A stretch of DNA of 64,000 bases from an uncultured Acidobacteriota bacterium (lineage in GTDB: Bacteria; Acidobacteriota; Thermoanaerobaculia; Gp7-AA8). The stretch covers positions 312,558-376,557 of the forward strand of contig CAVUKB010000007.1 of the NCBI GenBank assembly GCA_963741955.1, in the 5' to 3' direction. Position 1 is the first letter of the stretch. Each line of letters opens with the position of its first letter. Below are positions 7,743-23,612 of the stretch, one piece after another. Below the pieces are notes generated by a model. That model worked only from the letters and a program-made list of their open reading frames with translations, made no database searches and was not told the DNA's origin. Made by a program: the position numbers and the translations under genes.

Positions 7743-7955
7743 CGATCCGGTCTCCCTCCTTTCGCTTCCGAAGCAGTTTCAAGGATACGCCGTTCGGGAA
7801 TCCGCCGGGAACCTGATCGCAAAAGTGCGGGGAGCCGTTATGATTCGATGCACGGGCGATAACTCCCGCCCCCTCTTTCTTTTGGCGCGGGGTTAGCAGG
7901 ACCGGTCAGAACGGTTCCGGAACCGGCAAAGGCACGTGATTCGAGAATATTGGCG

Positions 7956-10900
7956 ATGATTTTCAACCGGAGCGGCGAGTCCGAGGTCCCGCGAGAGAAC
8001 GAGCCGGGACGCTCTGCGTCCGACGGGCCTCTCCCCGGCCGTCGTCGGGGATGCCGGCGCGTTCTCCGAATCGTCGTCGGGGTGGCGCTCGTGGTCCTTC
8101 TTTTCCTGATCGGATTCTCGATCACCTTCGTCGGAACCGGGAAGTTCGGCCAGTACGTGGCGACCAAGATCGCGGCGAACCTCGAAGCGCATCTCGGGCG
8201 GAAGGTCCACATCGGGAGAGTGATCATCCTCCGGACCTATCCGATCACGGTCATCCTCGAAGACATCACGCTCGCGAACGTTCCGGAAGGGGAAGCGAAG
8301 TACTTCGCGAAGATCGACCGGGCGGTGGTGAAAGCGGGGGTCACGTCTTTCTACAAGCGGGTCTTCTCCCTCAACTCGATCGAAGTCGACCATCCGCAGA
8401 TCAACCTGGAGATCTTCGGTCCGGAGAGTCCGATCCCGCACAACTTCCCTCACTGGAAGGCGAACAAGCCGACCGGTAACCTGCAGATCGTCCGGGTCGA
8501 GGTGGACCGGATCACGGTGAAAGATGCGGAGTTCGCGTTCCTCGATCACCGTCATCAGATCACGGCTCACATGACGCGTCTCGCGTCCGTGATCACTCCC
8601 TCCGTCAACGAGCAGATCTACCAGGGGACGGCGGTCAGTCCGGCCGTGACGGTTCAGATCCAGGACTACGAGCCTTTGCATCTCGATTTCCGCGGCGGGT
8701 TCCGCTACGACCCCGGGACTCTGAAGCTGACCGGCCTGCGGCTCGACGGTGAAGACATTCACGTCGAAGCGGACGGGAAGGTCGAGCCGATCACCGAAGG
8801 GATCTACGACTTCGCAATCCGGGCGAATTTCGATCTGAAGAAGGTGAAGAAGACGTTCCTGGTCGACACCACACTCGACGGTCCGATGGCCATGACCGGA
8901 CAGCTTCACGGCGACACGGGCACCTTCGTCTTCAAAGGAGGATTCCGCTCTCCGAAGATCATCGCCGATCAGTACACCATGTCCGACCTTGCGGCGAAGT
9001 TCCAGGTGGACAACACCCACGCCGTCGTCGACGTCACGAAGGCGAGCTTCGAGGGGGGAGCGGTCACCGCTCACTACGTCCTGAACGATTTCAGCGAGCC
9101 GTATCCGATGGTGGTGGACCTGGGCTTCCGCGGCGTGTCGCTCGAACAGATGATCGGGACGTGGGGAGTGAGTCACATCGGCCTGGCCGGCGCGGCCACC
9201 GGAACCCTCCACTACACCTGGAACAAGAACGACCTTCTTGGCGGGCACGGAACCGGAATCGCACGGCTGAGCCCCAGCGCGCTCGCATCGAGCAGGGCGA
9301 AGTACCCGATACCCGTCTCCGGCACGACGAAGTTCGGCATCGACAATGGGGTGATCCGATTCGCATCGGCGGACCTCGACCTGCCGAAGTCGAAGATTCA
9401 CTTTGCCGGAACGCTCGCCATCAGCGATCTGAGGACGAACTTCACATACTCGGTCCGGACCGGTGACTTCTCGGAGATCGACCGGATCGCATACAACCTC
9501 GCGCACGCAACCGGCAATCCGGATTTCACTCTGCTCGGGCTGGGAGGATCAGGGACGGCATCGGGAACGCTGAAAGGGAAGATCGACGAGCCGGTGGTCG
9601 CAGCGCACATCGAGGGGGCAGGTCTACAGTACAACCACGTCCTGATCGGCGAGACCGCGACCATCGATCTGACCTACGACGGACCGAAGGAGACGCTCGG
9701 CTTCCGCCCGGCGGTGTTCCGCCTTCCGAGCGCGTCGATGACCCTTCGCGGAACCCTCCATTTCCTGAAGGGGAAGGCCGGACCCGTCTTCGACCTCCAG
9801 GTCACTGCCGACAACTGGCCGGTAGAACGTGCTCTCGACGCGGTGGATATGCAGCAGTTCGCGATCAGTGGACGGGCGACTGGCGAGCTGACGGTGAAAG
9901 GGACGCCGGAGGACGGGACGGTGACGTTCTCGCCGGTGGCCATCGCGCAGGAAACGGGACAGATCAACGTCACCGGAACCATCCACTGGCTGCCGGGAGA
10001 GAAGAACGTCGTGTTCAATCTCGACGTCGCAGCGGAGTCGTTCCCAGTGCAGGACCTCCTCACGTTCCTCGACATGTCCACAACGCAGATGAGTGGGCTG
10101 GTGACCGGCACGATGCATCTCGAAGGACCGCTCACCACGATCGAAGGAGCGGGCTCGCTCACGTTGCGTAACGGGAGCGTGTACGGACAGCCGATCGAAA
10201 CGGCGACCGCCGACATCCTCTTCCGCAAAGGAGAGGTCCACGTCACGCATCTCGAGGTGACGTCGCCTGCAGGGCATGTTCTCGGTGAGGCCACCTACAA
10301 CTTCGAGACCGGCAAGTTCGGCTACGTGATCAAGGAAGGGACGCTGCAGCTCGGGAATATCGCTCTTCCCGAGGCGCTGCAGGATCTCTTCGGCGGGACG
10401 CTCCACATCGTCTCCAGTGGTGCGGGAACGATGCAGAATCCGGAACTGGTGCTCGAGGCGACACTCGAGAGCGGTCAGATCAAGGGGGTCGAGTTTCCGC
10501 CCGGTGCACCGGCTCCGACGCTCTACCTCACCATCCGCAACGGTGAGATGAGCATCCGCGGGTCGGCGTTCGACGTTCTCTCCATCGAGGGGAGCGGCTC
10601 GGTCGCGCAGTCGGGGGCGCTCGACGGATCGGTCACCGTCAGGCTGACCGACATCGGGAAGTTTCTCTCCATCGTTTCGCCGTCGAGCGATATCGGGACG
10701 ACCGGAAGCATGGTGGTGCAGCTCGATCTGGGAGGGAAGCTCGGAGCGCTCGAGACGATCAGGATCGAAGGGACCGTGCCGGAGCTCGATCTGCAGATCT
10801 CCGGACACCCGGTGACACCGGCGAGCCCGATCCGTTTCGCCTTGAACAACGGAGCGCTGCAGTTCGAGTCATTCCAGTTGAGAACGGACGGATCGACGTT

Positions 10901-13900
10901 CGACATCGCCGGAAGCGTAGGGCTGACCGGCGAGCAGAAGATCGATCTGAACATCGACGGCGCGGTGGAAGCCGCGCTGCTCCAGCTGTTCCTTCACGAT
11001 CTCAAATCGGAGGGGCAGATCGGAATTCGGGCCCGGGTGGGGGGCACCGTGAGCACTCCGCGCCTGGAGGGAACCGCCGAGGTGAAGAACGGGCAGTTCC
11101 GTTTCGCCGGCTTCCCGCAGCTGATCGACAACGTCAACGCGGCCCTGGTGTTCCAGGGAGATCGTCTTCGGATCGATTCGTTCCAGGCCGTGGTCGGAGG
11201 CGGAACGGTGAACGCGGGCGGCTTCATCACTCTGAATGGCCTCACCCCGAGTCGGGTACGGATCAATGCGACGGGAAAGAACGTCTCCATCCGCTACTTC
11301 GAAGGGCTCACCATCGACGGCGATTTCACCGGAAAGCTCGAGGGGGGTGTGGACCGGATGATCCTCGACGGCAACGTCACCGTCAACCGCGCCGTCTACT
11401 CGAAGGATTTCGATTTCGCGACCTCGATTCTCAACCTGATCCTGGAGCGGCGGGAGCTGATTCCGGCGCTGGCCGCGAGCTGGCAGGATCGGATCTCTCT
11501 CGACGTCAAGGTGAGCGCGGACGATACGCTCGCGGTCAAGAACAACATCGCCGACATCACGGCGAGTGCGGAGTTCGACGTGATCGGGACTCTCGCCAAT
11601 CCGGTGCTGATGGGACAGCTCACGATCGACGAGGGAGGGAAGGTCGACTTCCAGGACGTCCAGTATCGCGTGGTGCGCGGCACCATCAACTTTCAGAATC
11701 CTTTCCGGAACGACCCCTACTTCGACCTCACCGCGGAGGGGCGACTCCAGGATTACCAGCTGACCATCAACGTCACCGGGACGCTCGATCACATCACCCC
11801 GACCATCACCAGCGATCCTCCGATTTCAGACCTGACCCTCCTTTCCCTTCTCGGACCCGGTCCGCTGACGACGGGCGCTGCGGGTGGGCCGCGGATCGGC
11901 ACCTCCACTCTCGAGACGACCGGTTCCTCGCTGGTTGCGGAGAGTCTCGGTTCTCTGATCGGCCAGCGCATCCTCCCCTTCGCCGATGCATTCCGCTTCG
12001 AGCCCGGGCTGGTCGGCGATTCCGAGCAGAGGGTGACGTTCGAAAAGCAGATCTCGGACAACCTTCGGGTCATTCTGGTGTACTACCCCAAGGACCCCAA
12101 CCGGCGGAACGCGGAGATCGTGGAGTGGCAGGTCAATCCCGAATGGGTGATTCAGGCCACCGGAGTCGGAGGCGAGGCGAAGCAGAGTTACCTCCTGGAG
12201 GCGATCGACGCACGTTTCCGACGGCGGTACGAGGGGCACTTCGGCGTGAGCGGTGGGAAACCGGAACGGCCGCCGGCGGGGACGGCGACGATTGCGACTC
12301 CGGCCGGACCGGCAGCGGTACCGCACGAGCCGTTGCCGACGAATCAGCCTCTCGCACCGGAGATCGCGTTCACCACTCCGACCGTCGAATCGATCAGTTT
12401 CCGGACCGACAGTCCGTTCGACGTCACGCCGCTCGCCGACGTGATCTCCCTCTCGACCGGCAAGCCCCTCGACGTCCGCGACCTTCAGAGCTCGATCCAG
12501 GCTCTCTACGCGACGGGCAACTTCCGCGACATTCAGGTGGCGGCCGAGCAGCACGACGGAGCGATCGACGTCACGATCCTTCTCTCGCTCCACTACCTGA
12601 TCTCGGACGTCGGCTTCGAAGGGTTGACCGAGTTCGAAGATCGGGCGAAGAAAGAGATGGTGACACGCGCCGGGTCGGTGCTCAGCCTCAATGCGGTCGA
12701 CCGCAGCGCGGTCGCGATCCAGACCATGCTCGCCCGGCGCGGCTGGCTCGAGTCGACGGTCGACCCGGAGGTGCAGTATCAGCGCGAACAGAACCTGGCG
12801 AAGGTGATCTATCACGTCGCCATGGGACCTCGGGCAAAGGTCACCGGGGTCGAGTTCACCGGCTCGCTCGCTCCCTTCGGCCGCGATCAGCTGATCGACC
12901 GGATGAAGGAACGTCCCGGATCGTGGTACTCGGCGTCAGCCGCGCGCAACGATGCCGACCGGATCCGGAACTTCCTGGTGCGGAAGGATTACCGGCGGGC
13001 GGACGTCCGTTACGTCGACGAGACCTACGACAGCAGCTCCGGCAGCGTGACGCTCCACTATCGGGTCGACGTCGGCCTGAAGGTCCGCGTGGCGGTCACC
13101 GGCGTCCCGCGCTCGGCCGTGCACCGGATGATCCCGTTCGGCCGGAACGAAGCGTATTCGCAGGACGCCATCGCCACCGCCACCGATGCGATCATCCGGC
13201 GCTATCAGCAGAAGGGATACTTCTTCGCCGCAGTCGACGTGACGGAGAAGGAGAGCGGCGGCGAATGGGTGATCACATTCGATGTCGTTCCCGGCGAGAC
13301 GTACCGCGTCGGGAGCGTCCGCTTCGAAGGGAACGAGACCGTTTCCGACAAGCAGCTCCGGAAGCTCGTCGCGACGAAGGCCGGCGGAGGGTTCCGTAGT
13401 TTCTTCGGTTCTCTTTTCGGCCGCGGCGGCCTCACTCAGGCACAGCTCAACGAGGACCGCGATGCGATCGCCGCCTGGTACCGGCTCCACGGCTTCACCG
13501 AAGTGAGCGTCGGCCAGCCGGTGGCGAATCGCAAACCGGGGAACCTGCTGGAGATCGTTTTCCCGATCACCGAAGGGCCGCAGACCATCGTCCGGAAGAT
13601 CGAGATCGTCGGCAACGAGGGGATTCCCACCAGGCAGCTGCCCGCCCTGAGAATGAAGGAAGGGGATCCGCTCAATCCGCAACTCGTCACCGCGGACCTG
13701 ATCGGGCTCCGATCGTTCTACAGCGAGAGAGGATATCCGGAGGTTCAGGTCACTCCTCACGTCGAGCCGAATTCCGCGAAGACTTCCGCCACTCTGACGT
13801 ACCAGATCGCCGAAGGACCGAAGGTCGAGATCGGAGACGTCGCCGTTCGCGGAAATACGTATACGAGGACGGACGTGGTGCTGAAGAAGGCCGGTCTGAA

Positions 13901-15182
13901 GAAAGGCGAGCCATTCAGCTACCGGACCCTTCTCGAGGCGCAGCGCGAGCTCTACCGGATGGCGATCTTCGAAAGGGTCGAAGTCCAGCCCGAACACGGC
14001 GGGACGACTCCCTCGGAGCGCAACGTGACCATCGACGTCACGGAAGGGAAGGATCTGACCGTCGCCGGCGCACTCGGCTACTCCTCCTCCGAGAACGCGC
14101 CCCGCGTCACGGCCACTCTCTCCGACCGGAATCTGTTCGGCACCGGCCGGTACGCCGCAATCGAGGCGCGCGTCTCTCAGCCGGAGAAGCGATACCTCAT
14201 GACCTACACCGAGCCGTTCCCGTTCAACTACAACGTGCCGGCGCAGCTCACGGTCTTCCGTACCGACGAGAACCGTACCGTCGGTGGAACCGAGAATCTC
14301 TTCCACGTGGGGCGCTGGGGAACCTTCGTGGAGCTCGCGAAAGTCTTCCGCGAACAGACGCGGTGGTCGCTCCGCTACGAGTACAAGCTGGTCGATTTCA
14401 CCTGCCGGGACGAGACGAACGAGCTGTGCCAGCTGGCGAAGCTCGGCATTCCGACCGCCGGAATTCCAGCCGAGGATCAGGGAACGCGGGTGTCCAGTCT
14501 GACCCCGACGTTCTTCTTCGACCAGAGAGACGACCCGGTCAACCCGCACCGCGGCTTCTACGCCAGTGCGTCGCTGGAGTACGCGTTCCGCTTCCTCAAT
14601 GCGGACGCGAGCTTCCTCAAGAGCCTCACCCAGGGAGCGTGGTATCTCCCTCTGACCGACCGGTCGCAATTCGTCGTGGCGGGACGGATCGGAATGATCG
14701 AGCCGCTCGGAACCGAGCGTCAGCTCGAGAACCCGAGCATCGGACCGCGCGTTCCGATCTCCGAGAAGTTCACCGCCGGAGGCGAGTCGTCCCACCGCGC
14801 GTTCGAGAGGAACGGACTCGGAGTGCTCTACCAGCTCTGTCCGGAGCCCACGAGCTGCTCCGGTTCGATTCCCGCCGGCGCGAGCCTGATAGGCGTCGGG
14901 AAGAACGTCTATCCGATCGGTGGAAACGCGCTGGTGGTGTTCAACACCGAGTATCAGTTCCCGATCTTCGGAAATCTGCAGGGAGCCACGTTCCTCGACA
15001 TCGGGCAGGTGTGGGGAACCATCCAGTCGATGAACGCGCGGGATCTCCGCTACGGGGCGGGAGCGGGCCTCCGGTACGTCACCCCGCTCGGGCCGCTCCG
15101 TCTCGACGTCGGCTTCAAGTTCGACCGGAAGCCGTACGAGGATCCATACGCGGTGTTCCTGACGCTCGGGTATCCGTTCTAG
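7956..15182 (+). CDS. Single-polypeptide fusion of TamB/AsmA-like translocation-and-assembly protein (N-terminal signal-anchor + DUF490) with a BamA/TamA-like Omp85 protein (multiple POTRA domains + 16-strand-type beta-barrel ending ...GYPF)
   Basis: Continuous 2,410-codon ORF with no stop. N-terminus RVLRIVVGVALVVLLFLIGFSITF anchor with AsmA-like start. DUF490-like C-terminal TamB region (...DFQDVQYRVVRGTINFQNPFRNDPYFDLTAEGRLQDYQLTINVTGTLDHI...). Pro/Ala linker near nt 12250-12390 (SGGKPERPPAGTATIATPAGPAAVPHEPLPTNQPLAPE). Then POTRA-like units (ISFRTDSPFDVTPLADVISLSTGKPLDVRDLQSSIQALYATGNFRDIQV...) and an Omp85 barrel from ~14040 ending VFLTLGYPF*. ORF-track start 7950 is TTG; first ATG is at 7956. 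Confidence 0.8.
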   Translation: MIFNRSGESEVPRENEPGRSASDGPLPGRRRGCRRVLRIVVGVALVVLLFLIGFSITFVGTGKFGQYVATKIAANLEAHLGRKVHIGRVIILRTYPITVILEDITLANVPEGEAKYFAKIDRAVVKAGVTSFYKRVFSLNSIEVDHPQINLEIFGPESPIPHNFPHWKANKPTGNLQIVRVEVDRITVKDAEFAFLDHRHQITAHMTRLASVITPSVNEQIYQGTAVSPAVTVQIQDYEPLHLDFRGGFRYDPGTLKLTGLRLDGEDIHVEADGKVEPITEGIYDFAIRANFDLKKVKKTFLVDTTLDGPMAMTGQLHGDTGTFVFKGGFRSPKIIADQYTMSDLAAKFQVDNTHAVVDVTKASFEGGAVTAHYVLNDFSEPYPMVVDLGFRGVSLEQMIGTWGVSHIGLAGAATGTLHYTWNKNDLLGGHGTGIARLSPSALASSRAKYPIPVSGTTKFGIDNGVIRFASADLDLPKSKIHFAGTLAISDLRTNFTYSVRTGDFSEIDRIAYNLAHATGNPDFTLLGLGGSGTASGTLKGKIDEPVVAAHIEGAGLQYNHVLIGETATIDLTYDGPKETLGFRPAVFRLPSASMTLRGTLHFLKGKAGPVFDLQVTADNWPVERALDAVDMQQFAISGRATGELTVKGTPEDGTVTFSPVAIAQETGQINVTGTIHWLPGEKNVVFNLDVAAESFPVQDLLTFLDMSTTQMSGLVTGTMHLEGPLTTIEGAGSLTLRNGSVYGQPIETATADILFRKGEVHVTHLEVTSPAGHVLGEATYNFETGKFGYVIKEGTLQLGNIALPEALQDLFGGTLHIVSSGAGTMQNPELVLEATLESGQIKGVEFPPGAPAPTLYLTIRNGEMSIRGSAFDVLSIEGSGSVAQSGALDGSVTVRLTDIGKFLSIVSPSSDIGTTGSMVVQLDLGGKLGALETIRIEGTVPELDLQISGHPVTPASPIRFALNNGALQFESFQLRTDGSTFDIAGSVGLTGEQKIDLNIDGAVEAALLQLFLHDLKSEGQIGIRARVGGTVSTPRLEGTAEVKNGQFRFAGFPQLIDNVNAALVFQGDRLRIDSFQAVVGGGTVNAGGFITLNGLTPSRVRINATGKNVSIRYFEGLTIDGDFTGKLEGGVDRMILDGNVTVNRAVYSKDFDFATSILNLILERRELIPALAASWQDRISLDVKVSADDTLAVKNNIADITASAEFDVIGTLANPVLMGQLTIDEGGKVDFQDVQYRVVRGTINFQNPFRNDPYFDLTAEGRLQDYQLTINVTGTLDHITPTITSDPPISDLTLLSLLGPGPLTTGAAGGPRIGTSTLETTGSSLVAESLGSLIGQRILPFADAFRFEPGLVGDSEQRVTFEKQISDNLRVILVYYPKDPNRRNAEIVEWQVNPEWVIQATGVGGEAKQSYLLEAIDARFRRRYEGHFGVSGGKPERPPAGTATIATPAGPAAVPHEPLPTNQPLAPEIAFTTPTVESISFRTDSPFDVTPLADVISLSTGKPLDVRDLQSSIQALYATGNFRDIQVAAEQHDGAIDVTILLSLHYLISDVGFEGLTEFEDRAKKEMVTRAGSVLSLNAVDRSAVAIQTMLARRGWLESTVDPEVQYQREQNLAKVIYHVAMGPRAKVTGVEFTGSLAPFGRDQLIDRMKERPGSWYSASAARNDADRIRNFLVRKDYRRADVRYVDETYDSSSGSVTLHYRVDVGLKVRVAVTGVPRSAVHRMIPFGRNEAYSQDAIATATDAIIRRYQQKGYFFAAVDVTEKESGGEWVITFDVVPGETYRVGSVRFEGNETVSDKQLRKLVATKAGGGFRSFFGSLFGRGGLTQAQLNEDRDAIAAWYRLHGFTEVSVGQPVANRKPGNLLEIVFPITEGPQTIVRKIEIVGNEGIPTRQLPALRMKEGDPLNPQLVTADLIGLRSFYSERGYPEVQVTPHVEPNSAKTSATLTYQIAEGPKVEIGDVAVRGNTYTRTDVVLKKAGLKKGEPFSYRTLLEAQRELYRMAIFERVEVQPEHGGTTPSERNVTIDVTEGKDLTVAGALGYSSSENAPRVTATLSDRNLFGTGRYAAIEARVSQPEKRYLMTYTEPFPFNYNVPAQLTVFRTDENRTVGGTENLFHVGRWGTFVELAKVFREQTRWSLRYEYKLVDFTCRDETNELCQLAKLGIPTAGIPAEDQGTRVSSLTPTFFFDQRDDPVNPHRGFYASASLEYAFRFLNADASFLKSLTQGAWYLPLTDRSQFVVAGRIGMIEPLGTERQLENPSIGPRVPISEKFTAGGESSHRAFERNGLGVLYQLCPEPTSCSGSIPAGASLIGVGKNVYPIGGNALVVFNTEYQFPIFGNLQGATFLDIGQVWGTIQSMNARDLRYGAGAGLRYVTPLGPLRLDVGFKFDRKPYEDPYAVFLTLGYPF

Positions 15183-15490
15183 AGAAGCCGAGGCTTGCAG
15201 AAGCCGAGGCTCGAGACTCGAGGCTGGAGGCTCGAGGGGAACCGCGGGGAGAGTCAACCGCTTCCGGAATGTTCATGCAAGAGAGGATTTCGGAGAATTA
15301 AATTCTGTCAATACGGCATTTCGATGAATAAAATGCGCCGAAATCGATAATATACCGAATATTTCGGCGATGAGTGTGGCGAATATTTTGGGCGAGGAGT
15401 GCGTCGTCTCTGCGTCGGGGTCTCTGCTTCCCGAGCCTCGAATCTCGAACCTCTAATCCCGGCCTCTGCGAGCCCCGGCTTCTAATCCTC
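15183..15490. mobile_element. MITE-like miniature element: ~45-bp imperfect terminal inverted repeats flanking an AT-rich (~40% GC) core with an internal hairpin (gccgaaat...atttcggc)
   Basis: Left end 15183-15237 (gaagccgaggcttgcagaagccgagg..ctcgagactcgaggct) matches the reverse complement of 15431-15488 (gaagccggggctcgcagaggccggg[attagagg]ttcgagattcgaggct) at about 37/42 positions plus one 8-nt indel. The core drops sharply in GC. The element sits exactly between the stop codons of two convergent genes. Confidence 0.45.
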
Positions 15491-15679
15491 GTGCAGTGAC
15501 GGCTCGAGCTGCTCGGCGCCGTGCAGTCGCCCGGTCAGCTGTGCCGGATCGTGGATCAGGATCGGAAGGTGTTGAGAGCAGATCGAGTGCGTCTCGCCGC
15601 GGAACTCGAACGTGATCAGAGGGACCGACGTGGAGTCGCGGTCGCAGGCGATACAGGTACGGCTGGTTCGAAGTGTCAT
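15482..15679 (-). CDS. Small (65 aa) hypothetical zinc-ribbon-like protein (CxxC...CxxH)
   Basis: ATG verified at 15677-15679 with GAGGA 8 nt upstream; high GC3 codon usage. CIAC ... HSIC-SQH spacing. Confidence 0.45.
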   Translation of the reverse strand: MTLRTSRTCIACDRDSTSVPLITFEFRGETHSICSQHLPILIHDPAQLTGRLHGAEQLEPSLHED

Positions 15680-15861
15680 TCAGTGGGATCCTCGGCAACG
15701 AAGTAGCGGTCGTCCCGCGGGAGCATTGTGCGGGGTCGCTCGCCGCTGCGATGTGACGCGAGTCGCAGCTCCGGGTAGTCGGGCGCACAATCGCGGCCCG
15801 GTTCCGGCCTCGATCCTTCGCCCGACGGAACCGCTCTCGATTCCCGCAAGCTGGCGAGCTC

Positions 15862-16731
15862 TCATCCCCCCATCTTCATCAGTGCATTCATGTCGTCCTC
15901 GTCGAGCCGGATTCCTGCCGCTGCGGTGTTCTCCTCGAGATGTTTCACCTTCGAGGTTCCGGGAATCGGCAGCACCACCGGCGAGCGTGAGAGGAGCCAC
16001 GCGAGTGCGATCTGCGAGGGTGCAGCGTCGTGTTTCTTCGCGATCGAGTCGAGCTTTCCGTCCGTAGCCAGCTTTCCGGTCGCAAGAGGGAACCAGGGAA
16101 TGAACCCGATGTTCTGCTGCTCACAGAACTCCAGAACTTCTTCCCACCGGCGATCGCCGAGGTTGTACTGGTTCTGCACCGTGGCGACGGGAAAGTATTC
16201 GGAGGCCTGGCGAATCTCGTCGACGCCCACCTCGGAGAGGCCGATGTGACGGATTTTCCCCTCCGCCCTCAAGCGCACCAGCGTTTCGAACTGATCCTCG
16301 GCGGGAACCTTCGGATCGATCCGGTGGAGCTGATAGAGATCGATTCTATCGAGGCGGAGCCGCTTGAGGCTCTCTTCGCAAGCGGATCGAAGATGCTCGG
16401 GACGGCCGTTCGGTTCCCATTTACCGGGACCGGGGCGCTCGAGCCCGGCCTTGGTAGCAATGACCAGGCCGTTCGGGTACGGATGGAGCGCTTCCGCGAT
16501 CAGGCGTTCGCTCACCTCGGGGCCGTAAGAGTCGGCGGTGTCGATGAAATCGATCCCGAGCTCGATCGCGCGCCGGAGGACGCGGATGCACTCGTCGTGG
16601 TCGGCCGGCGGTCCCCAGACCCCATCGCCCGTGATTCGCATCGCGCCGAACCCGAGGCGGTGGACCTGGATGTCGCCGCCGATTCGGAACGTGCCGCTGC
16701 CGGTCGCAATCGCTTCATTCGTTTCGGTCAT
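15862..16731 (-). CDS. Aldo/keto reductase family oxidoreductase
   Basis: AKR motifs ([43 protein letters not shown]). ORF-track start 16776 is TTG; ATG verified at 16729-16731 with GAGGAG 6 nt upstream. Confidence 0.85.
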
Positions 16732-16840
16732 CTGAATCTCCTCGTCATCTGGAGTCGAACCATATCGTCGATTCAAATGCCGGTCCAGGTTGAGGGAGGC
16801 GGAATGACGGTCCGCTCTCGGCTATGATCACCTCACCGGC

Positions 16841-17917
16841 ATGAAACTCTCCGAGCTCGGATGGAGCGAATTTTTCGACGTGGCACTGGCACAGAGCCGG
16901 GGGAAAGGTCTGACCCCCGGGCGCGTCGTGTCGGAGCATCGCGGGGTGCTGAGGGTGGCGACGGAAAAGAGAGAGTGGAGAGCCCGACCGGCGGGACGGC
17001 TCCGCCGCGAGGCGGTGGGACGGGGCGATCTTCCCGCAGTCGGCGACTGGGTTCTTCTCGAGGCTCCCGCCAACGCGGACATCGCCCTGGTCCAGCAGGT
17101 GCTTCCACGACGGACGAAGTTTTCCAGGCGGGCCGCTGGCGAACGGAATGAGGAACAGGTTCTCGCGGCGAACATCGATCTGGTCTGGATCGCCGCTTCG
17201 ATCGCCGGCGAGGTCAACCTGCGAAGCATCGAGAGATATCTTTCGATCGCGTGGGAGAGCGGAGCGCAACCGGTGGTGGTGCTCACCAAAGCGGATCTCG
17301 CAGCTGATGCAGTGGCCGCAGTGAGCGCGGTCGAGTCGATCTCCCCCGGAATACCGGTGGTGGCGGTCAGCAGCGTGAGCGGCGAAGGAATCGCCGCGCT
17401 CGGTGATCTCCTGACGCCGGGAACCTCGATCGCGATCCTCGGTCCCTCCGGAGTGGGGAAGTCGAGCCTGATCAACCGCATCGCCGGCGAGGAACTGATG
17501 AAAGTCGGCGACGTGCGGGAGGACGATCAGAGAGGGCGGCACACCACCACACACCGTCAGCTTCTGCGGATGCCGTCCGGCGCGCTGATCATCGATACAC
17601 CCGGAATCCGTGAGATCCAGCTCTGGGAAACGGAGGAGGGAATCGAAGAGACATTTTCCGAGATCGAGATCGCGGCGCGGCATTGCCGCTTCAGCGACTG
17701 CCGTCACGAGACCGAACCGGGATGTGGGGTCCGTGATGCGCTCGCTCGCGGAGAGCTCGACACGAAGCGGGTGGCGAGTTTCCGAAAGCTCCAGAGCGAG
17801 ATCGAGTTTCAGGAGCAGAAGCACGATCCCCGAGTGCGGGCGGAGGCGAAACGTCGTATCCGGGAGATCATGCGAGCGTTCCGGAAGCCGGACAAGTTGC
17901 GGGACCGGCGGAAGTAG
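16841..17917 (+). CDS. rsgA: Ribosome small-subunit-dependent GTPase A
   Basis: ATG verified at 16841. Circularly permuted GTPase order (G4 VLTKADL upstream of P-loop GPSGVGKSSLIN). OB fold and C-terminal Cys/His zinc motif (CRFSDCRHETEPGC). Confidence 0.9.
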   Translation: MKLSELGWSEFFDVALAQSRGKGLTPGRVVSEHRGVLRVATEKREWRARPAGRLRREAVGRGDLPAVGDWVLLEAPANADIALVQQVLPRRTKFSRRAAGERNEEQVLAANIDLVWIAASIAGEVNLRSIERYLSIAWESGAQPVVVLTKADLAADAVAAVSAVESISPGIPVVAVSSVSGEGIAALGDLLTPGTSIAILGPSGVGKSSLINRIAGEELMKVGDVREDDQRGRHTTTHRQLLRMPSGALIIDTPGIREIQLWETEEGIEETFSEIEIAARHCRFSDCRHETEPGCGVRDALARGELDTKRVASFRKLQSEIEFQEQKHDPRVRAEAKRRIREIMRAFRKPDKLRDRRK

Positions 17918-18640
17918 CGCGGTTCGCGCTCCCCGCGCGGCCGGTCTCTCCGGGGTGCGGTTCGTCCGATCTCTCTGGGGTGCGGATCATCCGATCCGCG
18001 GCGGAGATCGTGTTGTACGGGATGAAGAGCGTGCCTGTGGGTGAACGCGGAGCGTCGGTGGCCGGACCGGTGTGGATGGAAGAGGCTCTGCTTCAGCCGC
18101 AGGGACTGTCTCGATCCGATCTGAACGCGGTCGTCGCGGCGGATCAGAGGATCCGCGCTCCCCGCGCGGCCTGTCTCCCGGGGTGCGGTTCGTCCGATCT
18201 CTCCGGGGTGCGGATCATCCGATCCGCGACGGAGATCGTGTTGTACGCGATGAAGAGCGAGCCTGTGGGTGAACGCGGAGCGTCGGTGGCCGGACCGGTG
18301 TGGATGGAAGAGGCTCCGCTTCAGCCGCAGGGACTGTCTCGATCCGATCTGAACGCGGTCGTCGCGGCGGATCAGAGGATCCGCGCTCCCCGCGCGGCCG
18401 GTCTCTCCGGGGTGCGGTTCGTCCGATCTCTCTGGGGTGCGGATCATCCGATCCGCGACGGAGATCGTGTTGTACGCGATGAAGAGCGTGCCTGTGGGTG
18501 AACGCGGAGCGTCGGTGGCCGGACCGGTGTGGATGGAAGCGGCTCCGCTTCAGCCGCAGGGATGGTCTCGATCCGTTCTGAACGCGGTCGTCGTGGCGGA
18601 TCAGAGGATCCGCGCTCCCCGCGCGACAGATCGATCCGGA
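17918..18640. repeat. Intergenic tandem direct repeat, ~3.1 copies of a 228/229-bp unit (>95% identical), each unit containing short hairpins (gcggatc-atcc-gatccgc; gcggatc-agag-gatccgc)
   Basis: Anchor string cgctccccgcgcgg found at 17927, 18156, 18384 and 18613 (periods 229/228/229). Only a handful of SNPs and 1-nt indels between copies. Lies between the rsgA stop and the M23 peptidase start. Confidence 0.9.
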
Positions 18641-18750
18641 GCGGACGATGCGGGTGGACGCGCCTCGGACGGGAAATTCGAGATGCTTTTGAGCCTCCGG
18701 CTGGGCATAATGTTGAACTGGCCCCGGCTAGATCGGGGAGAGAATTCGTG

Positions 18751-19695
18751 ATGGCTTCGCTGCTGATCGCAATCGTCACGCTCCTCGTGATGCTCGTTCC
18801 GACGGTGTGGATCGTCGTGGCGCGGCCGGGAGGACGGACCGTCTGGGCCCCCCGCGTCCTTCTCGCCGCAGCTCTCGTGACACTCGGATTTCTACTGGGG
18901 AACTGGGCGGTCCTCGGGATCTGGACGCGCATCGGCCTCGCCGGCCTCTTCCTCGTGGCGGTGCTCGTCTCGTTCGTCCGGGCCCGGCGAGTGGGCCGCG
19001 ATTCCGCCGGCGGCGGAAGGACGTCGTTCGCGATCACCATCATTGCCGTCGTGATCCTCCTCGTCGATCTCGCCGCGATCGCTTCGCGGATACCTCCGGC
19101 GGGAGCGGTCGACCTCGCGTTCCCGTTCCACTCCGGTACGTTCGTGGTCACTCAGGGCGGCCGCGGGCCTCTGACCAACCCGTTCCACTTCTGGACCCCG
19201 GCCGAGCAATACGGGCTCGATCTGGTCAGAGTCGGAAAGCTCGGCGTGCGGGCGCGCGGGGTTGCGCCGAAGGAGCTGAAGGAGTACGCCACGTGGGGGG
19301 AGCCGGTCTTCAGCCCCTGTACCGGCCGGGTGGTTGACGAGGTCTCGCGCACCCCGGAGGCGGCGATCGGATCGCCCGACGCCTCGGTGCCTGCGGGTAA
19401 CTACGTGATCCTCGACTGCAGCGGGACGAACGTCGTCCTGGCCCACCTGAAGCGCGGTGCCGTCTTCGTCCGCCCTGGCGACTCGGTGCTGGAAGGAGAG
19501 AGAATCGCGAAGGTCGGAAACTCCGGGTATACCAGCGAGCCGCAGTTGCACCTGAGCGCATCGCGGACGGAGGGGGGGCGCCAGGTTCCGGTCCCGGTCC
19601 GCTTCGAGGGGGCGTTCCTCACACAGAACGACGTCGTTCGGGTGGAGGGAGAATCGCAGCAGCCGGCCATTCCGGCCGCACAAGTTCCTCAGTAG
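18751..19695 (+). CDS. M23 family metallopeptidase with N-terminal polytopic membrane region
   Basis: ATG verified at 18751 with GGGGAGAG upstream. Four hydrophobic helices, then an M23/LytM-type domain (GEPVFSPCTGRVVD...NYVILDCSGTNVVLAHLKRG...GNSGYTSEPQLHL). Confidence 0.8.
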   Translation: MASLLIAIVTLLVMLVPTVWIVVARPGGRTVWAPRVLLAAALVTLGFLLGNWAVLGIWTRIGLAGLFLVAVLVSFVRARRVGRDSAGGGRTSFAITIIAVVILLVDLAAIASRIPPAGAVDLAFPFHSGTFVVTQGGRGPLTNPFHFWTPAEQYGLDLVRVGKLGVRARGVAPKELKEYATWGEPVFSPCTGRVVDEVSRTPEAAIGSPDASVPAGNYVILDCSGTNVVLAHLKRGAVFVRPGDSVLEGERIAKVGNSGYTSEPQLHLSASRTEGGRQVPVPVRFEGAFLTQNDVVRVEGESQQPAIPAAQVPQ

Positions 19696-19925
19696 GGCTC
19701 GACGTCTTCGGCCGCTTTTCGTACCCGCTCGGACTCGAGCTCGGTCACCCGCGTTTTCAGGTCGATGATCTCGTTCGAGAGTCGAGTCAGGTCGTCCCGC
19801 AGCGCTTCGTGAGCGATGTCCCGGATCTTCGACTGCAGTTTCTGCATCTTGTCACGCTGGTATTGAGTGAGCTTGTCGACCGAGTCGCCGAAGATTTCAC
19901 GGAGGGTCTGTTCGAGATCTGCCAT
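19689..19925 (-). CDS. Small (78 aa) charged coiled-coil hypothetical protein
   Basis: ATG verified at 19923-19925. No competing ORF. Local GC lower than surroundings. Overlaps the convergent M23 gene by 7 nt. Confidence 0.45.
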   Translation of the reverse strand: MADLEQTLREIFGDSVDKLTQYQRDKMQKLQSKIRDIAHEALRDDLTRLSNEIIDLKTRVTELESERVRKAAEDVEPY

Positions 19926-20282
19926 TGGTCACCTCGCAGCGTAGTCAGTTCCGAAGCTCATCAGAATCGAGCAAGCGATGTGCCACGCAGGAGCCGGACG
20001 ACGCGCTCACGACGAGCGCAGACCCCGCTCGTCCGGCACGAATTCGATCCCGCGGTGGCCCGGCGGTCACGCCGCGTGCAGGACGTTCTTCGGCGCGGTG
20101 GCTGCGGTATCGCGGGCACGCGTCGCGCCCGCCTCGATTCTTGCGACTTGCAACGAGAAGTTGTTTGGCGAACGTGAACCCCAGGGTTCCGGCGCGGAGC
20201 GCCTCCACCCTGGGCTACTGTCGGTCGTGCCTACGGCACTGGGGGTGGAGCGAGTGCGAGGCGGGCGGCGGTTCGTGGGAGT

Positions 20283-20390
20283 GAGTCACCAAAGTTCTAG
20301 AGCACGGATCGTCGGGGCGAGTGGTGCAACCGGGACGTGCAGCGCGTGAAGACGGGCGATGGTCCTTGAAACTTCGGCCACGAGAGGTCG
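20283..20390. repeat. Copy A of a ~107-nt dispersed direct repeat (partner at 21050..21156, ~80% identity)
   Basis: Aligned by eye: gagtcacca[a/g]agtt[c/t]t[a/g]gagcacg...acgtgcagcgcg[t/c]gaaga[c/t]gggcg...gaaacttcggccacgagag. Confidence 0.6.
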
Positions 20391-20403
20391 CCCAGGCCTT
20401 CGG

Positions 20404-20664
20404 TTACGTGAGAGGCGCGATTTTCGGCAGGGGCTCGAGCGCTTCTGCATTGCTCCACGCTTCTCGCAGTTCGTTGTGGTGCAGCGTCGCCCACTCGACG
20501 ACGAGGCCGGCCGCCCGAGGCGGTAGTTTCCCCGCGAAGATCGCGAGAGTGTCGATCTCGAAAAGTGCCTCCTCGCCGCCGTACGATGCATGGAAATGAG
20601 GGGGAGGATGATCGTCGAGATACATCCGGATCACGATCCCGAAAAACCGGCTCAGCTCAGGCAT
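20404..20664 (-). CDS. DUF4160 domain protein
   Basis: ATG verified at 20662-20664. Characteristic M..L.DH.PPHFHA motif (MYLDDHPPPHFHASYGGEEA). Overlaps the upstream DUF2442 gene by 8 nt. Confidence 0.75.
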   Translation of the reverse strand: MPELSRFFGIVIRMYLDDHPPPHFHASYGGEEALFEIDTLAIFAGKLPPRAAGLVVEWATLHHNELREAWSNAEALEPLPKIAPLT

Positions 20665-20968
20665 GCCTTGCTTCGGTCGAACCGAGGTTCGGGAACAGCT
20701 GATCGGGAGTCTTCCCGGTCACCTGGAGGTAGAGCGAGTCGGCGCCCAAATCGACGCTCTCACTCCAGACGACCGCACGCCCCTCTTCGACCCGGGCTCG
20801 TTCGAAGGCTCCGGCTTCGAGCCAGAGAGAGAATACACCGCGACCCGCGAGGTACGAAAGATCTGCGATGCCACGCGTACCGTCGCTGAACCGAACGCGA
20901 AGCCGGTAATCGGGGAGTGGCTCGATCTCGACGAGCTCGACCAGTGACCTGCTCACGACGTCAATCAT
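20657..20968 (-). CDS. DUF2442 domain protein (partner of DUF4160)
   Basis: ATG verified at 20966-20968 (MIDVVSRSLVELVEIEPLPDYRLRVRFSDG...). Only the C-terminal 103 aa of the 271-aa track ORF carries recognisable domain content. Confidence 0.7.
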   Translation of the reverse strand: MIDVVSRSLVELVEIEPLPDYRLRVRFSDGTRGIADLSYLAGRGVFSLWLEAGAFERARVEEGRAVVWSESVDLGADSLYLQVTGKTPDQLFPNLGSTEARHA

Positions 20969-21049
20969 ACTGCAGTCTGTGAACCGCCGACGGGAGGAGG
21001 GCGCGCTGAAAGGCCGCGCGAGTGAGAACGGGTATCGCTTCATGGGCGG

Positions 21050-21156
21050 AGTCACCAGAGTTTTGGAGCACGAATGATCGGGTGATTGGTGCCACGCGTA
21101 CGTGCAGCGCGCGAAGATGGGCGGGGTTCTCGAGACTTCGGCCACGAGAGGGTGGT
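21050..21156. repeat. Copy B of the ~107-nt dispersed direct repeat (partner at 20283..20390), lying ~80 nt upstream of the DUF962 gene start
   Basis: See copy A. Confidence 0.6.
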
Positions 21157-21238
21157 CGCTGCGAGACGGATTCGGGTTCGGTCTACAATGGACGCAAATG
21201 GACGCAGCTTCTCCTCGCGCGGCGCAGAAGGAGGTCCC

Positions 21239-21571
21239 ATGCGCGCTCCGATCCGGTCGTTCTCCGACTTCTGGCCCCACTACGTCCGTGCGCACTCGAA
21301 ACCGCGGACCAGGATCCTCCACGGCATCGGCTCCACGCTCGCAGTCGGTGCAGTGGCTCTCGCGCTCGCCAGCAGCCCATGGTGGCTTCTGCTCGCTCCG
21401 CTGGTCGGCTACGGCTTCGCGTGGTACGGCCACTTCTTCGTCGAAGGAAACCGGCCTGCGACGTTCGGACACCCGTTCTATTCACTCGCAGCCGACTACC
21501 GGATGCTCTTCCTGATGATGTCCGGACGGATGGACGACGAAGTGGAAAAGCATCTGATATCTGATATCTGA
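21239..21571 (+). CDS. DUF962 (Mpo1/YGL010w-like) small membrane protein; stop codon supplied by the IS terminal repeat
   Basis: ATG verified at 21239 with GAAGGAGG upstream. SFSDFWPHYVRAHSKPRTRILHGIGS...GHFFVEGNRPATF. The last residues and TGA fall within catctgatatctga at the IS left end. Confidence 0.7.
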   Translation: MRAPIRSFSDFWPHYVRAHSKPRTRILHGIGSTLAVGAVALALASSPWWLLLAPLVGYGFAWYGHFFVEGNRPATFGHPFYSLAADYRMLFLMMSGRMDDEVEKHLISDI

Positions 21572-23612
21572 TATCTGAAACCTTTATCTTCTATCTAGCC
21601 TGAAGTTCCCTGGGGCTATAGGCAAGGATCCGCTGTAAATTCAGGGAGATAGGCAGGAATATGCGTGCAGGCTTCTGTCTACAAGTGGATGGACTTGAGC
21701 AGATCGAAGGCGCGCTGTTGAGTTAGGCCTGGGGTGGTGACGAGGTCGAAGGTGGACTCGTCGTTGGATGCGCCCGGACGGCGAGCGGTGTTGCGGACGA
21801 TGGTGCTCAGGTCTGCGAGCAGGGTCTGAAAGCTGTGGGCGGGAGTGCCGTCGTCGAGTACCTTCGAATGGATCTTATCGAGCGCTTTCGCTGATCGTTT
21901 TGCGGGAGCAACGGGATCACGGCTCGTTTTTGCCTGCTGGTCCTCGTCGGAGAAAAGCAGTGGGCGCCAGGCTTCCATCATGTGCCAGGCCACGTAGTAG
22001 GCCAGCATGCAGAGGAAGATGTGAGCCTTGACGCGCTCCTCGAGCCGGTGGCGGATGGGCCGCACCTGGAGATCGACAGTCTTCAGTGAGCGAAAGGCCC
22101 GCTCGACCTGACTGAGCAGCTTGTAACTGCGCACGACGTCGTCGGTGCCAAGAGTCTCGGCGGCCACGCTGGTCCTTACGACATAGAGCCCATCGAGGGA
22201 AGCCTCGCGCGCCACCTTGTCCGCGTCGATGTGGAAGTCAAGCCCGTCATCGCGAATGTCCAGGACAATGTGTTTGGCGACCTTGTACTTGTCGATCACC
22301 TTGCCGACGCGTACGCCAATGACGTCCTTTCCTTGGAGCTTGCCGTGCGAGACCATCCCTCGCACTTTCTCCAATTCCTTGAGCGTAGCCTCGAGGAGCG
22401 ACTCGCGTTTGTGCGCGCGCAACCGGGCCAGATCCGCATTGCGACAGGCCACCAGTCGCTCGCCCGGGAAATCGGGATGGGTCATCTCGAAAAGATTGCG
22501 CGTGTCGAACAGCCCGAGCTGGATATGACCGGCGTCAACGAGCTTTTGAATCGTCACGCTCCTGAGGGCCGTAATCCAATCAATGCCGTCTCGCTGACGG
22601 AGATCATCGATTTGCTTCTGCGAGATCATGCCGCGATCGCCAACGAGAACAAACTTCTCGATCGTGAAGGTCTTCTGTAGTTTCTCGACCTGAGGCATCA
22701 ATGTCCTGGGGTCACTGGTGTTGCCATCGAAGACACTCACTGCTACGGGGCACCCACGGCGGTCGGTCAGCAGTCCGTAGTTGACCTGAAGCTTGCCCTT
22801 CTTGCCATCCCGGTTGTGGCCGCGCATGGCGAGCGGGCAGCTCTCTCCCTCGAAATAGCTCGAGCTCAGGTCGTACAGGACCAGACCGCCCTTGGGCAGA
22901 TGTCTCGCTGCGAGTTTCTTTTCGATTGCGTCTTGTCGGCCAAGCAGCCAATCGAGCGCGCCATAGAGGTCGTCTTCATCGGCATCGGTGACACCGAAGA
23001 CTTCGGGAATCGTCGAGGTGTGCCATGACCGCACGGTGCTGAGCTTGCTGCGCGGGGCAAGGATACGAGCCGCCACCATGGCGAGGACCAGATCACGCTC
23101 GCGGCACGAGCGAGATGCAACGAGCGAAGCGAAGCCGAGTTGCTTGATTGCGATCTGGACGGCTTCGACATGACCGTGATGGACCGATCGAATGATCTCG
23201 AACAGCTCGGCGATCGGGGCGAGCCTCTCGCCCTTCAAGATTCTGCGAATCGCGTCGATCTGATCGGCCGGCAGGGCCGAGAGATTGGCCAGCGTGCGTT
23301 TTCGGACCTTGGCCCCCACCCGGTAGGACTCGCGCAGCAGGACGGCCGGGGCCGAGTTGCGGTTCGGCACGATGTCGATGTGCATGGCCACAGTATGCCA
23401 GTACTATTCACACCTGTCAATGCAGTAATCACACTTACATGGCTACATTCTTGCATACAAATCGAGGTCATCTTCAAGAAAACACAGCACTTCTCTGCGA
23501 AAACCCCCGGGAACTTCAGTCTAGCTGGATGCTCTCTTATCAGGCACTAATTAGATAACAGATAATAGATAACAGATAACAGATAACAGATAATAGATAA
23601 TAGATATCAGAT
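21551..23612. mobile_element. IS1634-family (IS4-like) insertion sequence, ~2.06 kb, with imperfect terminal IRs and low-GC heptamer microsatellite-like subterminal repeats
   Basis: Left end: catctgatatctgatatctgatatctgaaac...ctagcctgaagttccctgggg. Right end reverse complement: catctgatatctattatctattatctgttatctg...ctagactgaagttcccggggg. Encodes one DDE transposase. Confidence 0.75.
21679..23385 (-). CDS. IS1634-family DDE transposase
   Basis: 568 aa. Typical IS1634 transposase architecture and motifs (VLVGDRGMISQ, long C-terminal region). ORF-track start 23391 is GTG; ATG verified at 23383-23385. Confidence 0.85.
   Translation of the reverse strand: MHIDIVPNRNSAPAVLLRESYRVGAKVRKRTLANLSALPADQIDAIRRILKGERLAPIAELFEIIRSVHHGHVEAVQIAIKQLGFASLVASRSCRERDLVLAMVAARILAPRSKLSTVRSWHTSTIPEVFGVTDADEDDLYGALDWLLGRQDAIEKKLAARHLPKGGLVLYDLSSSYFEGESCPLAMRGHNRDGKKGKLQVNYGLLTDRRGCPVAVSVFDGNTSDPRTLMPQVEKLQKTFTIEKFVLVGDRGMISQKQIDDLRQRDGIDWITALRSVTIQKLVDAGHIQLGLFDTRNLFEMTHPDFPGERLVACRNADLARLRAHKRESLLEATLKELEKVRGMVSHGKLQGKDVIGVRVGKVIDKYKVAKHIVLDIRDDGLDFHIDADKVAREASLDGLYVVRTSVAAETLGTDDVVRSYKLLSQVERAFRSLKTVDLQVRPIRHRLEERVKAHIFLCMLAYYVAWHMMEAWRPLLFSDEDQQAKTSRDPVAPAKRSAKALDKIHSKVLDDGTPAHSFQTLLADLSTIVRNTARRPGASNDESTFDLVTTPGLTQQRAFDLLKSIHL

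Follow-up and report, generated by a model that had tools for sequence, protein, structure and literature searches.

Lineage-specific DNA with a DUF2442/DUF4160 cassette between two diverged direct repeats upstream of a DUF962 gene

Results and Discussion

The DUF2442/DUF4160 cassette and its neighbours

Two small, adjacent and co-oriented genes are located on the minus strand of the window, by which we mean the whole 64-kb stretch of DNA analysed here. The DUF4160 gene (20404-20664, minus strand) encodes a predicted DhiT-like toxin of 86 aa in which the PPPHFHA motif is present and which was recognised by Pfam PF13711 with E 1.3e-21 (76.9 bits compared to a cutoff of 23); the nearest DUF4160 homologue showed 83% amino acid identity. 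The DUF2442 gene (20657-20971, minus strand) encodes a predicted DhiA-like antitoxin of ~99-104 aa recognised by Pfam PF10387 with E 2.1e-9 (37.9 bits compared to a cutoff of 23.9). Both the domains and the 8-nt overlap of the two genes (ATGCCTGA, 20657-20664) were verified, confirming the overlapping minus-strand pair of the preliminary description. DUF2442 homologues comprise 94-100 aa, and their alignment starts at 20956. The 128-aa version of the gene proposed by the gene caller, with a start at 21043 inside copy B of the repeat described below, is probably an over-extension, and the annotated DUF2442 start codon needs correction.

The pair had been called toxin-antitoxin-like, and rightly so, as the family is a genuine toxin-antitoxin (TA) family represented by DhiTA of Dickeya, in which the antitoxin relieves the growth inhibition exerted by the toxin and the TA complex acts as a repressor of the promoter (PMC8198452). 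Like DhiTA of Dickeya dadantii 3937, the window pair combines both Pfam domains in small proteins encoded by a bicistronic unit with an overlap of a few nucleotides (PMC8198452). However, the toxin gene comes first in dhiTA (PMC8198452), whereas the order is reversed in the window, with the antitoxin gene first. The NCBIfam model toxin_DhiT scored 71.9 bits on the DUF4160 protein, under its equivalog cutoff of 100, and antitoxin_DhiA scored 23.1 bits on the DUF2442 protein, under its equivalog cutoff of 200; the window antitoxin has ~100 aa compared to the 160 positions of the latter model. Since the scores stay under the equivalog cutoffs and the gene order is reversed, the pair is, as judged from sequence, a new and distant member of a known TA superfamily (DhiTA, type II), with putative toxicity and function at this locus.

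The overlapping two-gene layout was common to all homologous cassette contexts fetched. The closest relatives of the cassette were 83% and 80% identical on the amino acid level and 77.5% and 75% on the nucleotide level. Nucleotide homology to the nearest ones was limited to 20406-20974, that is, to the coding sequences; their neighbourhoods were unrelated to that of the window and the repeat was absent from them. On the start codon side the homology ended within ~18 nt of the start codon, and on the stop codon side its end coincided with the right edge of repeat copy A. At four other independent cassette contexts no flanking direct repeats were detected (the window as control scored 144, compared to a shuffle maximum of 52), which argues against the repeat being a general feature of the cassette family, and no upstream motif common to the window and four cassette relatives was found. 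A repeat travelling with the cassette was rejected, since the relatives match in the coding sequences only and show neither an upstream motif nor flanking repeats.

The cassette is followed on the plus strand by a DUF962/Mpo1-like gene (21239-21571; Pfam PF06127, E 2e-33) whose closest homologues are ~77-79% identical on the amino acid level. An IS1634-family IS is situated beyond this gene on the minus strand (21600-23519; NF033559, 326 bits compared to a cutoff of 100); it is 1,920 bp long, its terminal inverted repeats are imperfect, and it has a 6-bp target duplication, TCTAGC, at 21594-21599 and 23520-23525. A collapsed short-read contig (L187) coincides with 21600-23519 to the nucleotide, so that the IS is delimited exactly and its boundaries are defined for annotation. 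On the other side of the cassette, the minus-strand gene cc78 (19689-19925) encodes a coiled-coil protein of 78 aa; no Pfam or NCBIfam family was found for it.

The Direct Repeats

The DUF2442/DUF4160 pair is bracketed by two direct copies of a repeat on the plus strand, copy A (20250-20408) and copy B (21018-21180). Their cores at 20272-20387 and 21039-21151, in which three collinear blocks merge into one gapped alignment, were aligned by blastn with 93 identities in 116 positions (80%), three 1-nt indels and a pairwise E value of 4e-25; a separate blastn gave 78% over 138 nt. A gapped local alignment covered the full extents given above with a score of 146, compared to a mean of 28.5 and a maximum of 47 in 300 shuffles. 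The cores differ by 11 transitions, 9 transversions and 3 indels, corresponding to a p-distance of 0.18 and a JC distance of 0.20. The direct repeats of ~107 nt and ~80% identity that had been noted around the cassette at 20283-20390 and 21050-21156 are thus real and fall within the refined boundaries. No third copy was detected by blastn in the 64-kb window. A coding origin of the repeat was rejected since the copies lie in different frames, the 1-nt indels between them leaving no common reading frame.

The right edge of copy A abuts the stop codon of the DUF4160 gene; this copy lies behind the TA operon, with 325 nt between it and the coiled-coil gene. A spacer of 46 nt (20972-21017) separates the cassette start from copy B, the nucleotide homology of the cassette ending at 20974 and the repeat alignment beginning at 21018. 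Copy B precedes both the TA operon, at a distance of 47-68 nt, and DUF962, at 58-87 nt. Its core ends 87 nt before the DUF962 ATG, in agreement with the distance of ~80 nt given in the preliminary description. Two short-read contigs derived from different samples were 100% identical to the locus, and both contain the repeats and the cassette.

The Ancestral Locus and the Insertion

The window comes from a soil acidobacterium of the lineage Thermoanaerobaculia (Acidobacteriota). For comparison we used 80 related Thermoanaerobaculia loci (1.16 Mb), in which the best DUF962 protein is 79% identical on the amino acid level. The ancestral order in these relatives is a large gene of 2,410 aa, the coiled-coil gene (minus), DUF962 (plus) and an S9 peptidase gene (minus). 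In tblastn analyses the coiled-coil gene and DUF962 were divergent neighbours in 65 of the 80 loci, identifying cc78 as the ancestral divergent partner of DUF962, and the gap between them was mostly 20-66 nt, in a few cases up to ~200 nt. None of the 80 loci carries DUF4160/DUF2442 between the two genes. The corresponding gap in the window is 1,313 nt, compared to ~60 nt in the relatives, which argues that the cassette, both repeats and the hairpin described below are lineage-specific. The earlier suggestion that the cassette is an insertion is supported by this compact adjacency in the relatives together with the missing cassette.

The short gap of the relatives contains a conserved core of ~45 nt, AGCAATTGAAGTGCCACG-N7-cGTGGGAGAATC, which is -35/-10 promoter-like and includes a CCACG...CGTGG palindrome; a 15-mer of this core was present exactly once per locus in 42 of the 80 relatives. 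Using a profile built from the intergenic regions of 39 relatives, nhmmer detected a degenerate left half of the core in the window at 19961-19990 (plus strand; GAGCAAGCGATGTGCCACGCAG compared to the consensus AGCAATTGAAGTGCCACG) with E 0.08. The score is weak, yet the match occupies the expected position beside cc78, and it is the sole recognisable part of the core in the window. A 10-nt match to the right half of the core (TTCGTGGGAG) inside copy A had an E value of 1.9 and was taken as chance; it is also off the repeat boundary once the alignment reaches 20250. With a profile comprising promoter and 5' coding sequence, homology to the relatives returned only from ~21250, inside the DUF962 coding sequence (E 6e-35).

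Between these two points, about 19991-21249, the window contains ~1.26 kb of lineage-specific DNA: a hairpin stretch comes first, the cassette follows between copies A and B, and a leader forms the end. Nothing similar to this DNA was detected in the relatives or elsewhere in the window. The same holds for its first part, insert 1 (19991-20249), which has a GC content of 70% and in which no coding remnants were detected. Insert 1 includes a long hairpin (20194-20250) and, at 20208-20240 on the plus strand, a sub-threshold match to Acido-Lenti-1 (Rfam RF01687, 29.2 bits compared to a gathering threshold of 37, E 2.6e-4). The last part (21181-21249, plus strand) is a non-ancestral leader with a strong Shine-Dalgarno sequence (GAAGGAGG), the ATG and the first 3-4 codons of DUF962, the profile of the relatives aligning only behind it. 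The foreign DNA has split the ancestral divergent promoter and partly replaced it (right half), and it supplies the ribosome-binding site and start codon of DUF962. The locus illustrates how a DhiTA-type cassette can enter a conserved divergent promoter in nature and rewire it; DUF962 now relies on imported DNA for its 5' region.

The whole neighbourhood had been regarded as an insertion hotspot. This holds insofar as the IS and the cassette are inserted and the stretch from the large upstream gene to the coiled-coil gene differs among the relatives, but not for the coiled-coil ORF itself, which is the ancestral conserved partner of DUF962 and not an inserted gene.

Search for Further Copies of the Repeat

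The repeat was absent from the 80 related loci, including the regions upstream of DUF962, in nhmmer and blastn searches. BLAST against plasmids and phages yielded no copy, and there were no matches in viral contigs, for which three blocks of the repeat were scanned, or in metagenome contigs, for which the central block was used. A 17-mer of the repeat gave 97 matches in metagenome contigs. Each was confined to the 17-mer itself and the number agrees with chance expectation; these matches are therefore attributed to chance. A spurious ORF that spans the hairpin region and half of copy A had no relatives in a database of 5.8 billion proteins. The genome and metagenome collections scanned do not include the source organism, and copies elsewhere in its genome lie outside these scans. 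Contigs assembled from short reads of two samples by a k-mer-based method pass unbroken through both copies, a hint against recent extra copies in the source genome.

These searches bear on both readings of the repeat put forward in the preliminary description. The first regarded it as a duplicated target, the sequence leading into DUF962. Since the repeat is absent from the short gap of the relatives, the duplicated sequence is not the ancestral DUF962 leader. A conserved leader was rejected because the element is missing in 80 of 80 relatives, and so was a degenerated duplicate of the promoter and 5' coding sequence of DUF962, as the profile of the relatives finds the true coding sequence only. 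Relatives with a single repeat copy and no cassette were looked for in the 80 loci; there were none, the repeat being absent there altogether. The second reading, a dispersed cis-regulatory or structured-RNA motif, fared no better: no other copies were present in the data searched, Rfam gave no match and no structure above the controls was obtained.

Proposed Origin of the Repeats

Our best explanation, which we hold with middling confidence, is that the repeats of ~140-160 bp represent a locus-private segmental duplication that arose from the recombination event placing the cassette and was left behind as a scar of the insertion. A segment of ~610 bp would have integrated with duplication of ~150 bp of adjoining sequence, either through Campbell-type integration, in which a small circular intermediate with a segment of homology enters by a single crossover, or through duplication in the course of repair or replication where the insertion took place. 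The arrangement of the locus is the geometry expected of such an integration, because the edge of copy A falls at the cassette stop codon and copy B begins ~45 nt upstream of the operon. Subsequently, the copies would have decayed to ~80% identity, and no function need be assumed for them. Copy B and the following 58-87 nt would incidentally have become the present 5' region of DUF962, with its ribosome-binding site and start codon. Since the duplicated sequence is not the ancestral DUF962 leader, either remodelling of the locus would have preceded the duplication, or both repeats would have arrived with the cassette as one block.

The divergence of 18-20% would fit an event long ago as well as copies that had differed from the outset. 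Repeats of this length are expected to recombine and delete the cassette as long as they are still similar, which counts against a duplication of this kind. As there are only two copies, from which constraint is not measurable, the lack of a function is a default and not a demonstration.

The closest known parallel to a private duplication by Campbell-type integration is given by repeats of the attL/attR type, which likewise lie in direct orientation on both sides of an insert, are tens to hundreds of bp long and abut the imported genes with one of the two copies. In contrast, the window contains no integrase, tRNA or recognisable attachment site, the insert is only ~610 bp long and the repeats are 20% diverged; neither a donor nor an empty single-copy site was found in the relatives and collections searched.

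Alternative Explanations

A new RNA, regulatory or mobile-element signal is not the most likely nature of the repeat; signatures of RNA, attC, IS or coding origin were absent from it. The main rival to the private duplication, possible but doubtful, is a functional cis-regulatory module (promoter or operator) present twice. Copy B would serve DUF962 on the plus strand and/or the TA operon on the minus strand, whereas copy A would influence the coiled-coil gene or cause antisense transcription into the toxin gene, and the module might serve as a binding site for the DhiA-like antitoxin, in the manner of type II TA operons that regulate themselves. With the ancestral promoter core disrupted, DUF962 must be expressed from the inserted DNA, and the distances of copy B from the TA operon (47-68 nt) and from DUF962 (58-87 nt) are in line with this reading, as is the repression of DhiTA promoters by the TA complex (PMC8198452). 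However, no sigma-70-like promoter was found in the region, the upstream region of the window shares no motif with the four cassette relatives, and cassette homology breaks off within ~18 nt of the start codon. In addition, copy A is poorly placed for such a module, behind the operon and 325 nt away from the coiled-coil gene, and the longest identical run of 17 nt is by our estimate unremarkable for 80% identity over 116 nt.

A tandem duplication of the upstream region together with the cassette, followed by deletion or replacement of the second cassette, would leave the order B-cassette-A on the minus strand. The geometry fits, each copy representing the 5' flank of a cassette unit on the coding strand, but we consider this course of events unlikely, since the 259 nt after copy A show neither DNA nor protein similarity to the cassette. 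A second, decayed cassette beside copy A was rejected, as tblastn gave noise only.

The insertion sequences IS1634 and IS1549 are reported to generate long variable direct repeats of 8-514 bp by no known mechanism (PMC2266710), and a long-duplication origin was worth testing with an IS1634-family element as neighbour. The repeat would then be a relic of IS1634-type transposition, caused by an IS copy that was later lost or by the resident transposase acting in trans on the cassette, which would then be a mobile insertion cassette without a transposase of its own. In favour of this, a family member that is multi-copy in the genome lies 450 nt away, the length of the window repeat is within the range of the long duplications of IS1634 and IS1549, and such variable repeats are reported for both (PMC2266710). 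Unlike those duplications (PMC2266710), the window repeats do not flank an IS: the DNA between them is not an IS, and 19926-21238 showed no likeness to IS ends, alignment scores being at shuffle level. Nor did a search for the features of a MITE or mobile insertion cassette reveal ends like those of the resident IS or other copies in the window and the 80 relatives. The resident IS itself made an ordinary 6-bp TCTAGC duplication. Given this 6-bp duplication and the lack of IS-like ends around the cassette, we regard the link to IS1634 as a coincidence, its probability as a cause being low.

A slim chance is also assigned to a dispersed family of the source genome (REP- or MITE-like) of which two copies lie around the cassette by chance. 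The region does harbour other repeats, a 229-nt tandem array and the IS. Against this, two copies in 64 kb compare with none in 1.16 Mb from 80 related genomes, the element has no terminal inverted repeats and no stable hairpin, the short-read contigs of two samples run unbroken through both copies, and the spurious ORF across the element is without relatives among 5.8 billion proteins.

It is very improbable that the repeat is the recombination or recognition site of an undescribed mobility of small TA cassettes, with repeat-cassette-repeat forming a mobile unit instead of the scar proposed above. Such mobility might be integron-like without a hairpin attC, or it might consist of trans-mobilisation by the IS1634 family with long target duplications. 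The locus would matter more if the repeat were a recombination site or if IS1634-type long duplications accompanied non-IS cargo; nothing that we found supports either.

A structured noncoding RNA in two copies, either a riboswitch-like leader or an sRNA, has still less in its favour and is hardly credible. RNAalifold on the plus strand predicted 40 pairs, of which 5 had compensatory changes on both sides and none was broken. However, 400 column-shuffled alignments reached equal energy (z +0.10 for the plus and +0.28 for the minus strand), with 2.7 +/- 1.3 double changes (p ~0.12, at the low power that two sequences afford). Single-sequence folds of the repeats showed no excess stability compared to shuffles (z -0.5 to +1.4). 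The Rfam comparison that had been proposed for the 107-nt element returned no family: there was no match above the gathering threshold anywhere in the window, and the repeats remained without a match even at E<=10. The absence of the element upstream of DUF962 in 80 relatives also speaks against an RNA leader, and the repeat should not be labelled as RNA in annotation.

Integrons commonly carry TA pairs. Their attC cassettes are typically small and promoter-less, often of the TA type, with a repeat of ~60-140 nt directly 3' of the ORF and ~80% similarity between sites, and the window has this geometry, with one repeat directly after the last stop codon, one ~47 nt before the first start codon and ~80% identity between them. 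Nevertheless, the reading of the repeats as attC-like sites of an integrase-less integron array (CALIN) is largely refuted and the least credible of all, as DNA folds of both copies on both strands revealed no single-strand hairpin (z +0.78, -0.01, +0.50 and -0.66 compared to 200 shuffles), the complementary arms CCAAAGTTCTAG / CTTGAAACTTCGG are ordered 5'-GTT...AAC-3' on both strands and thus the reverse of the R''(RYYYAAC)...R'(GTTRRRY) boxes, no GTTRRRY is present at the cassette-proximal end, no tyrosine recombinase or IntI was found among the 20 neighbouring proteins scanned (part of the genes of the window), and there are two sites only and no array.

The stop codon and the last 5 codons of DUF962 sit within a heptamer array.

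Conserved core of the ancestral intergenic region

The divergent intergenic region between cc78, the gene of a 78-aa coiled-coil protein, and the DUF962 gene contains a core of ~45 nt, AGCAATTGAAGTGCCACG-N7-cGTGGGAGAATC, which is strongly conserved among the Thermoanaerobaculia relatives (L003-L081), the proteins of which are only ~70% identical. The exact 15-mer GCAATTGAAGTGCCA was found in 42 of the 80 relatives, once per locus and always at this position. The core resembles a promoter carrying a CCACG/CGTGG palindrome, which may be a regulator site. The counterpart in the window (19961-19990) is split or degenerate.

Hairpin and DUF2442 start codon

Within the lineage-specific DNA, a stem CTCCACCC...GGGGGTGGAG (20194-20250) directly adjoins the left side of copy A, the first of the two direct repeats bracketing the DUF4160/DUF2442 cassette. 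It encloses a shorter plus-strand match to the Acido-Lenti-1 RNA motif (RF01687, 20208-20240), which at 29.2 bits (E 2.6e-4) stays below the gathering score of 37. The short-read contig L001/L082 terminates beside this match, at 20241.

Public gene calls assign 128 aa to the DUF2442 protein, with an ATG at 21043 inside copy B, the second repeat. This call is probably an over-extension, since the homologues comprise 94-100 aa and align to the window only from 20956; the true start is more likely to be at 20971 or slightly downstream.

Genomic surroundings of related cassettes

In several metagenomes (L191 compared with L192-L194), one and the same DUF4160/DUF2442 cassette is flanked by CMD-family and BrkB-family genes, its toxin sharing 71% amino acid identity with that of the window. 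TauD and tRNA_edit genes occur beside it in some of these cases and are missing from others, and this variation in neighbours indicates that cassettes of this family tend to be situated in variable regions.

At the locus studied here, an aldo-keto reductase gene, RsgA, a tandem array and an M23 peptidase gene (15200-19700) lie between a gene of 2,410 aa (7950-15182) and cc78, which are direct neighbours in most relatives. Since this junction is occupied by different, unrelated genes in several relatives, it is this site, and not the cc78-DUF962 gap, that is recurrently variable. The array (17925-18625), placed between the RsgA GTPase and M23 peptidase genes, consists of 3.1 copies of a 229-nt unit (96-97% identity) with internal 25-nt sub-repeats. 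Nothing similar was detected in the 80 related loci or the rest of the window, and an Rfam search gave no match.

IS1634-family element and heptamer arrays

The IS1634-family element could be delimited exactly to 1,920 bp (21600-23519). Its termini read CTGAAGTTCCC...GGGAACTTCAG, and the target duplication that flanks it, TCTAGC, is 6 bp long. The element is multi-copy, because an identical transposase is on record in at least three large contigs. The DUF962 and S9-peptidase genes converge on the site of its insertion, which has on either side mutually inverted, AT-rich arrays of the heptamer ATCTNNT (21552-21589 and 23553-23612). Both genes draw their final codons and their stops from these arrays and end ...GCATCTGA. 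The inverted arrays may form a terminator-like hairpin that acts in both directions, or they may be a target favoured by the insertion sequence.
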